A stretch of DNA of 18,053 bases from a virus (lineage: Duplodnaviria; Heunggongvirae; Uroviricota; Caudoviricetes), in the IMG/VR virus record IMGVR_UViG_2563366942_000011, one strand, 5' to 3'. This document shows, piece after piece, positions 2,551 through 8,487 of the stretch (its first letter is position 1; each line of letters opens with the position of its first letter). A program made the position numbers and the translations under genes. The notes beneath the pieces were generated by a model. That model saw only the letters and a list, made by a program, of their open reading frames with translations. It made no database searches and was not told where the DNA came from.

Positions 2551-2835
2551 TTATTCAGTGCCGATATTTACCTTTATCGCGTATACCTTTACCGGTTTAT
2601 CACCGAAGTGCGGATGTGTGATTGTCTTCACTTCATATCCGTCATACGGAACATCAACTCTGCGGCTGGAATCGTCGCGCTTCGGATATCCCTTTGTGAT
2701 AATCAGGCGGTCATGCTTACGGTTAACGAGGCGCTTTTTCCAGTAGTCATTACACAGGCGATACTCTTCCGTTTTCTCTCCGCGAATCATGGCATCGAAG
2801 TATTCACCTTTAACGGCAAGTTGCAGGTTAGCCAC
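2551..2835 (-). CDS. ASCH/DUF3850-like small protein
   Basis: GTG start at 2835 six nt after AGGAG; N-terminal ...GEYFDAMIRGEKTEEYR... resembles the ASCH-type motif. The track ORF extends to 2919, but that extension overlaps the upstream gene. Confidence 0.55.
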   Translation of the reverse strand: MANLQLAVKGEYFDAMIRGEKTEEYRLCNDYWKKRLVNRKHDRLIITKGYPKRDDSSRRVDVPYDGYEVKTITHPHFGDKPVKVYAIKVNIGTE

Positions 2836-3568
2836 GGTTAACTCCTTGCTGTGTGGCGTCGAGTAATAAATCCCACAACCGCTGAGAGCAATTTCCGCAT
2901 GTACAGCGTTGACCCACAACGTTTATCGCGTTGCTGATTTCCGGCGTTACCTGTTTAGGAACCATAACCCAACCATCCGGAGTTACCGGAAGCGAGAACG
3001 GCAGCACATCTCTGTGAACAAGTTTTTGCTGTGACAGGTTATCCAGAACTTTCTGTACTGCTGCATCACCGAATACACCAAGCGCATCTGCCATAACTCC
3101 TACAACCTGATAAGCCTCAGCGCATACCGTGGATAAACCATCCGGAATTACCGGAGAGTTGCCGGGTTCTTTAATGTGCAAGCGAGGCTCACCATCTTTT
3201 GGCTCAGGCCACTGGCGCTCCATGTTGATCTTCAATTTATCTTCCATAGCAACGGTAATTTCAGCATCGCTGATGCCAGCACGGCGCTGTGCATCCCACA
3301 ACAGAAACTGCATATCAGCCCACTCGCTAAGATCGTCTGGTTCGGCTGCGGCTTCCAGTGCCTCTTTTGAGAGGTGTTTCAGTGGACCAATGGGGCCAAC
3401 GCAGCCAAATGTGGAGTCAGACCATTTGGCATGCTCGTGGCGAATCTGTTCGCGTTCCAGTGATGCCAGTGCAATTCGTGCTAGTTCCATTTGTTCGCCA
3501 CGAGTAAGCCCGTTTTCAAGCGGATTTTTAATGAACAATTCAATACGTTCTTTGGTAATAGTGGTCAT
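2828..3568 (-). CDS. Putative dATP/dGTP pyrophosphohydrolase-like protein (DUF550-type N-terminal domain) with C-terminal module
   Basis: 246-aa ORF; N-terminal MTTITKERIELF...GEQMELARIALASLEREQIRHEHAKW resembles the DUF550/MazG-like phage family as I recall it; ATGA overlap with the upstream gene. Confidence 0.65.
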   Translation of the reverse strand: MTTITKERIELFIKNPLENGLTRGEQMELARIALASLEREQIRHEHAKWSDSTFGCVGPIGPLKHLSKEALEAAAEPDDLSEWADMQFLLWDAQRRAGISDAEITVAMEDKLKINMERQWPEPKDGEPRLHIKEPGNSPVIPDGLSTVCAEAYQVVGVMADALGVFGDAAVQKVLDNLSQQKLVHRDVLPFSLPVTPDGWVMVPKQVTPEISNAINVVGQRCTCGNCSQRLWDLLLDATQQGVNRG

Positions 3569-3774
3569 GTGTTAATCCTCAAAACTTTATGCCCGGGCGC
3601 AAAAGTACGTGTTTTGTCTTTGCTTATTCGCCACCCGTCTTTACGGGCCTCTTTTGCACAACCAGACCATGACTTACCGATATACTCACCGAAGTCTGGC
3701 ACTGGATATACACCTTCCGTACACTGGCGACAATCACAATAGAGATGCATGGTGTAACTTGCGGCAATAGCCAT
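3565..3774 (-). CDS. Small Cys-rich protein (69 aa), putative zinc-binding
   Basis: ATG at 3774 lies 1 nt after the stop of the 202-aa ORF; product MAIAASYTMHLYCDCRQCTEG... with a CxC..C cluster; stop overlaps the next start (ATGA). Confidence 0.6.
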   Translation of the reverse strand: MAIAASYTMHLYCDCRQCTEGVYPVPDFGEYIGKSWSGCAKEARKDGWRISKDKTRTFAPGHKVLRINT

Positions 3775-3775
3775 A

Positions 3776-4384
3776 TCACTCTCTTTTTCCCTGAAGCATG
3801 GCAGCGTGGCAGGCATCCTCTACGCCCTTAACTGCATCTGCGCAGTAGTTATAGCGATTGCATTCCACTAACTTCTGCCTGAGATTTTCAATTGCTTGCG
3901 CGACATCAGCCTGTATTACAGGAACTGGCGGAACGGCTGTCTGCTGCTCTCGAACGTCATTAGTCGCTATCGGTTCTGCTGCCAACTGACTGGCATATTT
4001 GTTAATGGTAACGATAAGCTCTTGCTCAGCCTCATCCAGACAATCACCGATACCTCGCCTGTCGCCGTCAAAATCATCGAAATCAGCACGAACTCTGGCA
4101 AATTTCAGGATTGCGGACAACACCTCACCAGGAATTACCGGAGAGTTGGTTGACGTTTCCGAAATTTCCCGAAAATTATTGGTTGACGAATTCGCGTTTT
4201 CCCGAAAGTTTCCGGCATGAAGCATAGCCGCGCGGCAGGCGTTCCAGCCTCTCACCTCTGCAATAGCGGCAACAGCATCGACCGCGTACATGCTAAGAGG
4301 GTTAGGCATTGGTTTTTCTTCAGGTACTACTGGCACTGGCTTGGCATATATAGCGGCTGAACATACCAACCCTTTGATAACCAA
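3776..4384 (-). CDS. ea22-family modular protein, linker plus C-terminal module (start uncertain; possibly the frameshifted 3' part of one gene with 4327-4581)
   Basis: Frame opens at TTG 4384 straight after an in-frame stop; contains the linker AKPVPVVPEE and later NSPVIPGE; first ATG is at 4309 (MPNPLSMY...). Confidence 0.55.
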   Translation of the reverse strand: MVIKGLVCSAAIYAKPVPVVPEEKPMPNPLSMYAVDAVAAIAEVRGWNACRAAMLHAGNFRENANSSTNNFREISETSTNSPVIPGEVLSAILKFARVRADFDDFDGDRRGIGDCLDEAEQELIVTINKYASQLAAEPIATNDVREQQTAVPPVPVIQADVAQAIENLRQKLVECNRYNYCADAVKGVEDACHAAMLQGKRE

Positions 4385-4581
4385 CTGTCAGCAATGTTTT
4401 TACTCCTCGTTATTGCCGGAATACCTAAGCCATTGTCTGAATGCAGCCATGCCACCGGATTCTCTTCCAGCGATGCCAGAGCAATTTCATAAGCCCGGCG
4501 CTCAACATTGTCTCGCACATCCAAACTGCTGATACGCTCTTTGATTTCTTTAATCAGTTCTTTGTCGGTAAAAGTGCTCAT
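4327..4581 (-). CDS. ea22-family N-terminal module (85 aa), possibly the 5' part of a frameshifted gene
   Basis: ATG at 4581 lies 1 nt after the ea22-like stop; MSTFTDKELIKEIKERISSLDVRDNVERRAYEIALASLEENP...; overlaps the next frame by 58 nt. Confidence 0.5.
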   Translation of the reverse strand: MSTFTDKELIKEIKERISSLDVRDNVERRAYEIALASLEENPVAWLHSDNGLGIPAITRSKNIADSWLSKGWYVQPLYMPSQCQ

Positions 4582-4582
4582 A

Positions 4583-5347
4583 TCAATCTCCATTGGTATC
4601 AATGTTTACAGCCTGACAAGACTCTTTGAGCACCCAGTCAATAGCGTCTTTCCATGCCTCTGTTTCGACTGGTGGATTTTCACGCTTAACCTGTTCATAG
4701 AAGCGCACTGCTTTAACCAGTCCTTCCGGTACTACTGGTGATGGCTGTTTAGCTTCTAAATCAGCAATTCTGTCAACCACGGCATCGACAGCATCTGAAA
4801 AGCCGAACCAGTTGCTCCACTCCGGCTCATCCCCGGTTGCTGCAAAGTACATATCTGCTAAAGCAGATTCAGCATGGTCACGCTCGTTAATGAGTTGCTC
4901 TTCGCTTTTCTCCAGTTCAGCAATACGCTTACCCCCATCCGAGATAACACCTTCGTAATACTCACGCTGCTCGTTGAGTTTTGATTTTGTCTCCTCAAGC
5001 TCAACTCTCAGCTTCCCAACAGTAAGAGCAATATCCTCGTTCTCCTGGTCGCGGCGTTTTATGTATTGCTGGTTTCTTTCCCGTTCATCCAGCAGTGCCA
5101 GCACAGTAGCCGGATTGGCTGCGGCGATGAATTCAGCATTGGCCTGCTGTTCCATTTGGAAATCTTCATCGAAACCGCTTTCTGGATGCGCTCCTTCAAT
5201 TCTGCAAATGGGAATATATCCAGCAACTTCACGATGAATTAGCGCATAATCACCATCAAATCGGCTCTCTCCATATTCGAGCGACCACTCACCACACGTT
5301 GCTTTTTCTGCCGCTTCACGCAGTGCCTGATAGTTAATTTCGCTCAC
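4583..5347 (-). CDS. ea22: Ea22-like protein
   Basis: GTG start at 5347 overlapping the orf73 stop; product begins (V)SEINYQALREAAE and contains LLDERERNQQYIKRRDQENEDIALTVGKLRVELEE...NEQREYYEGVISDG, matching lambda Ea22 as recalled; divergent ends. Confidence 0.8.
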   Translation of the reverse strand: MSEINYQALREAAEKATCGEWSLEYGESRFDGDYALIHREVAGYIPICRIEGAHPESGFDEDFQMEQQANAEFIAAANPATVLALLDERERNQQYIKRRDQENEDIALTVGKLRVELEETKSKLNEQREYYEGVISDGGKRIAELEKSEEQLINERDHAESALADMYFAATGDEPEWSNWFGFSDAVDAVVDRIADLEAKQPSPVVPEGLVKAVRFYEQVKRENPPVETEAWKDAIDWVLKESCQAVNIDTNGD

Positions 5348-5565
5348 TTCGAACCTCTCTGTTTACTGATAAGCTCCAGATCCTCCTGGCAACTTGCACA
5401 AGTCCGACAACCCTGAACGACCAGGCGTCTTCGTTCATCTATGGGATCGCCACACTCACAACAATGAGTGGCGGATATAGTCTGGTAGTTCAGACGACGC
5501 ATTTTTATTGCTGTATTGCGCTGTAATTCTTCAATTTCTGATGCTGAATCAATGATGTCCGCCAT
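5344..5565 (-). CDS. orf73: DksA/TraR-family C4 zinc-finger protein (lambda Orf73-like)
   Basis: 73-aa ORF with CCECGDPIDERRR...CRTCASC, two CxxC pairs typical of TraR/DksA; same position as lambda orf73. Confidence 0.8.
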   Translation of the reverse strand: MADIIDSASEIEELQRNTAIKMRRLNYQTISATHCCECGDPIDERRRLVVQGCRTCASCQEDLELISKQRGSK

Positions 5566-6147: not shown

Positions 6148-6302
6148 ACCGCCTCCCGTTTATTATTTATCTTCTCAGCCAGCCGCTGTGCTTTCAGTGG
6201 ATTTCTGATAACAGAAAGGCCGGGAAATACCCAGCCTCGCTTTGTAACGGAGTAGACGAAAGTGATCGCGCCTACCCGGATATTATCGTGAGGATGCGTC
6301 AT
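6120..6302 (-). CDS. orf60a: Lambda Orf60a-like protein
   Basis: [43 protein letters not shown]...; ATG at 6302 overlaps the exo stop (ATGA). Confidence 0.8.
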
Positions 6303-6979
6303 CGCCATTGCTCCCCAAATACAAAACTAATTTCAGCCAGTGCCTCGTCCATTTTTTCGATGAACTCCGGCACCATCTCGTCAAAACTCGCCATGTACTT
6401 TTCATCCCGCTCAACCACGACATAATGCAGTCCTTCACGCTTCATACGCGGGTCATAGTTGGCAAAGTACCAGGCATCTTTTCGCGTCACCCACATGCTG
6501 TACTGCACCTGGGCCATGTAAGCCGATTTTATGGCCTCGAAACCACCGAGCCGGAACTTCATGAAATCCCGGGAGGTAAACGGGCATTTCAGCTCAAGGC
6601 CGTTGCCGTCACTGCATAAACCATCGGGAGAGCAGGCGGTGCGCATACTTTCGTCGCGATAGATGATCGGGGATTCAGTAACATTCACGCCGGAAGTAAA
6701 CTCAAACAGGGCTCTGGCGTCGTTCTCGTACTGTTTTCCCCAAGCCAGCGCCTTAGCGTTAACTTCCGGAGCCACACCGGTGCAAACCTCAGCAAGCAGG
6801 GTGTGGAAGTAGGACATTTTCATGTCAGGCCATTTCTTTCCGGAGCGGGGTTTTGCTATCACGTTGTGAACTTCTGAAGCGGTGATGACGCCGAGCCGTA
6901 ATTTGTGCCATGCATCATCCCCCTGTTCGACAGCTCTCACGTCGATCCCGGTACGCTGCAGGATAATGTCCGGTGTCAT
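6299..6979 (-). CDS. exo: Lambda exonuclease (Red alpha)
   Basis: 226-aa [68 protein letters not shown]..., matching lambda Exo as recalled. Confidence 0.97.
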
Positions 6980-8282: not shown

Positions 8283-8415
8283 TTTTTGGGACTCCTGGCT
8301 GATTAAGTATGTCGATAAGGCGTTTCCATCCGTCACGTAATTTACGGGTGATTCGTTCAAGTAAAGATTCGGAAGGGCAGCCAGCAACAGGCCACCCTGC
8401 AATGGCATATTGCAT
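8251..8415 (-). CDS. cIII: CIII (FtsH/HflB inhibitor that stabilises CII), 54 aa
   Basis: Hand translation from ATG 8415: [54 protein letters not shown]; too short for the ORF track; overlaps kil by 32 nt as in lambda. Confidence 0.9.
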   Translation of the reverse strand: MQYAIAGWPVAGCPSESLLERITRKLRDGWKRLIDILNQPGVPKNGSNNYGYPD

Positions 8416-8487
8416 GGTGTGCTCCTTATTTATACATAACGAAAAACGCCTCGAGTGAAGCGTAATTGGTATGCGGTAACGCCGCGC

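Follow-up and report, generated by a model that had tools for sequence, protein, structure and literature searches.

Two overlapping reading frames in the exo-xis region of a lambda-like prophage as probable halves of one frameshifted mosaic gene

Is the region downstream of an ea22-like gene in a lambda-like E. coli prophage occupied by two small overlapping genes, or by a single gene that has lost its reading frame? This is the question raised by positions 3776-4602 of the window, by which we mean the whole stretch of 18,053 nucleotides analyzed here (IMG/VR virus record IMGVR_UViG_2563366942_000011). A sequence-only reading of this DNA had proposed a single ancestral ea22-type gene with a 1-nt indel near 4330-4390, and public annotations of the allele are in conflict: it is a pseudogene in the RefSeq bacterial genomes and two genes, one of them named "Ea22", in the phages ev017 and PhiR57_1.

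The window corresponds to the early-left (pL) arm of the prophage, which is integrated at icd, and the locus lies in the exo-xis region on the minus strand. In gene order, read on this strand, bet and exo (exo at 6299-6979) come first and are followed by DUF1317/DUF1382 homologues, a TraR-like gene (5344-5565), an intact Ead/Ea22-like gene of 254 aa (4583-5347; Pfam PF13935, E = 4e-40, 138 bits), the locus under study, a gene of 69 or 83 aa directly behind it (3565-3816), a gene for a 246-aa protein with a dATP/dGTP pyrophosphohydrolase domain (2828-3568; Pfam PF04447) and finally ASCH, DUF4222, xis and int (int at 1-1143). The lambda cIII thermoregulator RNA at 8370-8428 on the minus strand (Rfam RF01804, 88.5 bits) confirms the lambda-type layout of the pL operon.

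The first of the two frames, ORF A (4327-4581, minus strand), runs from ATG 4581 to TAG 4329-4327 and encodes 84 aa. GGAG is present 7 nt upstream of its ATG, and the stop codon of the ea22-like gene overlaps its start region (TGAtATG). The second frame, ORF B, lies at -1 with respect to ORF A and ends with TGA 3778-3776. Taken mechanically it is open from TTG 4384, two codons past an in-frame TGA at 4390-4388, and overlaps ORF A by 58 nt; the part that would make up the rest of a single gene (3776-4344, minus strand) holds the linker, a cassette and the C-terminal helical modules in 189 codons followed by the TGA. From 4345 frame B reads AKPVPVVPEE (more fully ...AIYAKPVPVVPEEKPMPNPL...), and the neighbouring Ead/Ea22 protein contains ...AKQPSPVVPEG.... 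The in-frame candidate starts of ORF B are 4384, 4336, 4309 and 4291, of which ATG 4309 is situated 17 nt past the ORF A stop TAG 4327. No Shine-Dalgarno match was found at any of these four starts, where the anti-SD duplex energies are +1.3 to -1.0 kcal/mol as compared with -4.9 to -8.0 kcal/mol for accepted starts in the same operon. The sequence-only reading had the coordinates of both ORFs, TTG 4384, the 58-nt overlap, the linker and ATG 4309 correct on recheck, and the energies bear out its remark that the second frame lacks a good ATG with a ribosome binding site. The plus strand of 3776-4602 contains only short unsupported ORFs, promoter-like matches in this interval are at chance level, no Rfam match was obtained, and terminator-like matches are slightly above chance (4 found, 1.4 expected).

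Downstream of ORF B, annotations of the gene at 3565-3816 (minus strand) differ in the start that is used. A start at ATG 3774, which is coupled to the stop of ORF B (TGAtATG), gives a product of 69 aa that matches phrog_926 over positions 1-68 of 69; ATG 3816 gives 83 aa and a 41-nt overlap with ORF B. The SD scores of ATG 3774 and ATG 3816 are comparable (-5.1 and -5.9 kcal/mol, respectively), and the start is ambiguous. The next gene, at 2828-3568 (minus strand), is one continuous ORF of 246 aa, consisting of a leader 'MTTITKER...ARIALASLE', the PF04447 domain and Pro-rich-linked tail modules. For the identical sequence in CFT073 and ATCC 25922, PGAP gives a partial 'pseudogene' and a shorter CDS, a split that seems to be an artefact of annotation to which the shared leader module has given rise.

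Homologues across the break and the missing base

With one base re-inserted, the repaired product of 268 aa was searched in a protein collection of 5.8 billion clusters. It is covered to 97-100%, at 70-92% identity, by more than 100 single-chain proteins, most of them annotated as DUF551 domain-containing, and its matches to single-chain proteins extend over 100% of the fusion (E = 2e-155). The protein alignment is continuous across the break, so that the comparison with intact homologues, which had been proposed as a check, yields one continuous protein that spans both ORFs. The same picture emerges from phrog_5117, a phage family of unknown function with 125 profile positions: ORF A accounts for positions 1-83 (E = 1e-21) and ORF B for positions 84-122 (E = 8e-10), so that the profile is split over two frames instead of matching contiguously in one polypeptide, which is the signature of a frameshifted member. 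Together, the end-to-end match of the repaired fusion and the continuation of phrog_5117 from ORF A into ORF B put the relation far beyond chance. The ORF B part also matches phrog_14306. Apart from annotations of the very same allele, no homologue begins independently at the linker or at ATG 4309, and the homologues thus do not present the two ORFs as independent genes with their own starts, an observation that would have spoken against the proposal. A homologue in strain XH992 (L010), taken for a second split gene, turned out to have a continuous ORF, the split being a PGAP annotation artefact.

The best match is WP_021528523.1 (P0001), an intact protein of 259 aa from a prophage of E. coli HVH 109 (L013) that has the same gene order as the window (TraR-Ea22-gene-...-xis-int) and is likewise located next to icd. 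This prophage is identical to the window over 6044-4332 but for a one-base gap, and over 4254-1987 but for one SNP at 3674. ORF A consists of 78 authentic residues (MSTFTDKELIKEIK...WYVQPLY), six out-of-frame residues (MPSQCQ) and the TAG; the 78 residues are 100% identical to residues 1-78 of P0001, and the ORF B part is 99-100% identical to the corresponding parts of the intact P0001 and P0003. That a prophage with identical flanks carries the gene intact argues that the two ORFs are the halves of one gene.

DNA alignments with L005, L006, L007, L008 and L013 place the lesion at 4345-4346 (minus strand): between 4346 (T) and 4345 (G), where a TATATA run ends, the window is short of one A. 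The in-frame homologues have CTATATATAGCCAAG (LYIAK) at this position and the window CTATATAT-GCCAAG, i.e. the ancestral CTA TAT ATA GCC has become CTA TAT AT GCC. In the longer alignment the homologues read CAG CCG CTA TAT ATA GCC AAG CCA GTG CC in one frame (CAGCCGCTATATATAGCCAAGCCAGTGCC, QPLYIAKPVP), and the window reads CAG CCG CTA TAT AT- GCC AAG CCA GTG CC. Since the window lacks an A that is present in the in-frame homologues, the lesion is a 1-nt deletion, and it falls within the interval in which an indel had been proposed. The site is not a homopolymer, and the deletion is the sole gap in 1,714 nt otherwise identical to L013. The N-module homologues L005-L008 adjoin yfdR in CPS-53-like prophages and continue into various C-terminal modules.

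Judging from these alignments, the broken state of the window is derived relative to all diverged homologues. The HVH 109 prophage itself could be a convertant that repaired its frame from a CPS-53-type donor, in which case the deletion would still lie 6 nt from the mosaic joint described below. In-frame homologues spanning the break, an identified indel and the intact sibling P0001 are the hallmarks of a frameshifted pseudogene, and we consider it very probable that ORF A and ORF B are halves of a single 268-codon mosaic accessory gene. The exact lesion and the intact sibling WP_021528523.1 settle the annotation conflict in favour of one broken gene. The frameshift as such is ordinary and recent, and RefSeq has the locus flagged as a pseudogene.

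The mosaic joint beside the deletion

Homology to the N-type parent ends at 4332-4320 and homology to the C-type parent begins at 4341-4339, which places the crossover in the octamer CCAGTGCC (4339-4332, minus strand), 8 nt of the Pro-rich linker that are common to both parental types. Next to the octamer the window carries a 77-nt cassette (4255-4331, minus strand; VVPEEKPMPNPLSMYAVDAVAAIAEVR), which differs from the 51-nt cassette VVPDARPTLNNGIVGFDE of HVH 109 and has its right border at GGCTGGAACGCCTGCCG (GWNACR). The same 77-nt cassette is located behind the Ead/Ea22 coiled coil in L011 and behind other N-modules in L003, L004, L009 and L010. The relatives of the C-part read TA(C/T) GCC GCC CCT CCA GTG CCA GTA GTA CCT GAA GAA (YAAPPVPVVPEE), which stands in frame behind other N-modules in Ss-VASD gp11, ASO78B gp079, L009, L010 and P0003/L014, and in L011 in frame behind a genuine Ead/Ea22 coiled coil.

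The deletion is found 6 nt upstream of the octamer and, because GCCAAG has been kept, inside the N-parent sequence. An out-of-register crossover between the parental linkers was considered and rejected: both parents have 12 nt between TAT and the octamer, and with this equal spacing and the N-parent GCCAAG retained a separate loss of 1 nt is needed. Outside the swapped cassette there are two differences between the window and L013 in approximately 3,980 nt, one of which is the deletion, and we estimate the chance of its falling as close as 6 nt to the cassette edge at roughly 0.015. On the basis of this proximity, it is probable that a single recombination or gene-conversion event gave rise to both the joint and the deletion. 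In such an event the N-module of one parental type would have met the cassette of another and lost 1 nt there, for which patchy repair of a heteroduplex with indel loops is a possible route. No intact copy of the exact chimera was found in the E. coli complete genomes, the 5.8-billion-cluster protein collection, IMG/VR or the metagenomes, and every full-length match of the repaired chimera to the E. coli complete genomes was 118/119. The chimera may therefore have been created already broken, that is, it may never have existed in an unbroken form.

Short Pro-rich peptides recur at the module borders of three adjacent genes (4583-5347, 3776-4581 and 2828-3568, all on the minus strand). The recurring peptides are PVVPE, NSPVIPGE/NSPVIPDG, PPVPV and LPVTPDGW. 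Their positions are those at which homology to other phages breaks off, and they apparently serve as joints for recombination. Module ends repeatedly carry a GWNACRAAML / ACHAAML motif. With a frameshift 6 nt from a joint, the locus illustrates neatly, on a small scale, the reshuffling of exo-xis accessory genes at short Pro-rich linkers. Its importance is chiefly for annotation; of mild interest besides are the 6-nt distance to the linker joint and the lack of any intact copy of the chimera.

Spread of the allele, its consequence and rival readings

Among 5,426 complete E. coli genomes, 89-90 match the interval 3700-4700 with 100% identity, CFT073, ABU 83972, ATCC 25922 and clone D being among them, and the allele is also identical in the isolated phages ev017 and PhiR57_1. 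With a search pattern that allowed 0 or 1 extra base, the 41-nt frameshifted form was detected in a further 4 IMG/VR and 12 metagenome contigs, which are 99.9-100% identical to the window over 3776-4602; the extra-base version in this context was seen neither among these contigs nor in the E. coli complete genomes. As all copies are 99.9-100% identical, the allele is very young, and its youth is the only reason why the downstream frame has stayed open; among copies this similar the open frame gives no evidence of selection. Since two isolated phages carry the broken allele, the gene is dispensable for phage growth. The persistence of the allele in a successful lineage and in viable phages is compatible with neutrality, and also with a split that is tolerated or useful.

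The same prophage decays differently in different hosts. In the window the excisionase gene is interrupted by an IS1 of 768 bp (1219-1986; InsA and InsB recognized by Pfam), which lies between the two copies of its target-site duplication CAAAACGGG (1210-1218 and 1987-1995), and this prophage copy is probably excision-defective from the IS1 in xis, a gene that is intact in the sibling prophages L013 (HVH 109) and ATCC 25922, unlike in the window. In CFT073 (L001, 485-2736) ISEc10 of the IS21 family interrupts the adjacent ea22 gene and a second element, of the IS3 family, is located at xis, and in ATCC 25922 (L031, 1284-2453) ISEc52 lies in the DUF1382 gene. The window is free of the CFT073 and ATCC 25922 insertions.

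As the alignment shows, the loss of the A puts the gene out of frame directly behind its N-terminal module. Translation from ATG 4581 would then yield the 84-aa product (the 78 authentic residues and MPSQCQ) and end at TAG 4327, and the 189 downstream codons, being in the -1 frame and without a ribosome binding site of their own, would most likely be untranslated, judging by the missing SD, or be translated in traces by re-initiation at ATG 4309. Re-initiation at this ATG after termination at 4327 could be conceived of but is unsupported. An AlphaFold2 model of the intact P0001 from an alignment of 54 sequences was poor (mean pLDDT 47.6) and of moderate confidence in the N-module (residues 1-78) only, with residues 1-77 predicted as a compact helix-helix-strand-strand-helix-strand unit (block-mean pLDDT 58-81) followed by a disordered linker. 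With the predicted N-module ending at residue 77, the truncation would fall at a domain boundary, and the truncated N-module might remain able to fold. In biological terms little probably follows from the break, because the gene is dispensable.

The location of the break at a predicted domain boundary is also what a functional fission would call for, in which an 84-aa N-module protein and a C-terminal protein of 171-177 aa are made by termination-reinitiation at ATG 4309 or ATG 4291. The phage records do list two genes (ev017 gp38/gp37 and two PhiR57_1 CDSs), phrog_14306 is made up of proteins starting at MPNPL, ATG 4309 follows TAG 4327 closely in a tightly coupled operon with stop/start overlaps between neighbours, and the allele is present in viable phages and 90 genomes. 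However, neither 4309 nor 4291 is preceded by an SD, no diverged homologue starts at either position while all diverged relatives are single chains, there is no PHROG for a stand-alone N-module of about 80 aa, and all copies are identical, so that no sign of selection on either piece after the split is visible. We therefore regard a functional fission as unlikely. A related and equally doubtful suggestion combines the fission with the history of the joint: the chimera would have been born broken by mutagenic linker recombination, and the split then tolerated or even useful, with a free 84-aa N-module and a re-initiated C-terminal protein. If this were true, both mutagenic linker recombination and the fission of domains would have been caught in the act here, in an accessory gene of a phage.

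A full-length protein could be obtained from the present sequence by programmed -1 ribosomal frameshifting in the 58-nt overlap, for instance at the heptamer A_AAG_GGT (4375-4369), with a recoded product that would span ...QPLY/AKPVP or ...SKGLVCSAAIYAKP. ORF B is in the required -1 frame and open across the whole overlap, and the heptamer, as read from the sequence, has the shape X_XXY_YYZ in the correct phase. Nevertheless, homologues in which no shift is required have the same two codons for K-G (A_AAG_GGC), G_GGN is not known as an efficient A-site slippery triplet, and the predicted fold of the RNA downstream is no more stable than that of shuffled sequence (z = 0.05). All diverged homologues and the sibling prophage with identical flanks are in frame, so that the break counts as a derived mutation, not as a site of conserved recoding; neither a break conserved in diverged homologues nor a slippery heptamer with a stable structure is seen here, and we hold programmed frameshifting to be very improbable. 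It is hardly credible that the gene is really intact, reading TATATAGCC, and that the frameshift is a sequencing or assembly error. Single-base indels are a common assembly artefact, but this one is not in a homopolymer, the same 41-nt string is present in 90 independent complete genomes spanning two decades, in two phages and in 16 contigs, and the extra-base version is never found in this context.

Relation to ea22, recoded and DUF551 genes

Lambda Ea22 (Ead_Ea22, PF13935) is a pro-lysogenic exo-xis protein with mosaic C-terminal domains, and the mosaicism of ea22 genes is documented (PMC7093339, PMC10834534). The gene studied here is similarly located in the exo-xis early-left region and shares mosaic modules with ea22 genes. 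One of these is its neighbour in the operon, with a Pro-rich linker (QPSPVVPEG) that resembles its own, and in L011 a true Ead/Ea22 coiled coil is joined via the linker to the cassette that opens ORF B. The gene studied here differs from Ea22 in being without the coiled-coil Ead_Ea22 domain: at E <= 0.1, PF13935 was matched by none of the three sequences searched (ORF A, ORF B and the repaired fusion). The designation "ea22-type" given in the sequence-only reading therefore holds loosely, by virtue of the shared linkers and cassettes and the exo-xis position, and is not backed by a profile match. For the repaired protein, sequence searches in Pfam, NCBIfam and the PDB returned no family and no solved relative.

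The closest annotated counterparts are the PGAP pseudogenes C_RS30805 (CFT073) and DR76_RS30530 (ATCC 25922), which have the identical sequence, start at the equivalent of window position 4581 and are labelled 'frameshifted; incomplete'. They follow the frame only to about window position 4130, whereas the full broken gene runs to 3776; the phage records, unlike PGAP, annotate two genes. Two overlapping ORFs in a 0/-1 relation are likewise found in lambda G/GT, dnaX and the IS3 and IS1 transposases, and an IS1 with such overlapping frames is situated in the same window. Genes with a programmed -1 frameshift differ from the present one, which is without a conserved slippery site or stimulatory structure and has its homologues in frame.

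The gene belongs to a mosaic set of exo-xis genes annotated as 'EaA' or 'DUF551 domain-containing', in which modules are swapped at Pro-rich linkers. Its relatives in lambdoid/P22-like phages and CPS-53-like prophages include Ss-VASD gp11 from a Shigella phage, vB_EcoS_ASO78B gp079 and WP_000206746.1 next to yfdR. Like the gene in the window, they have the same N-module, or the same linker, cassette and central helical modules, with 70-92% protein identity over the whole repaired length and the same position in the early-left accessory operon. They are in frame, and most of the full-length homologues carry a DUF551 domain (PF04448) C-terminal to the shared region. The window gene is without DUF551, PF04448 giving no match in it, and it ends with ...AAMLQGKRE, as do P0001, P0003 and P0006.
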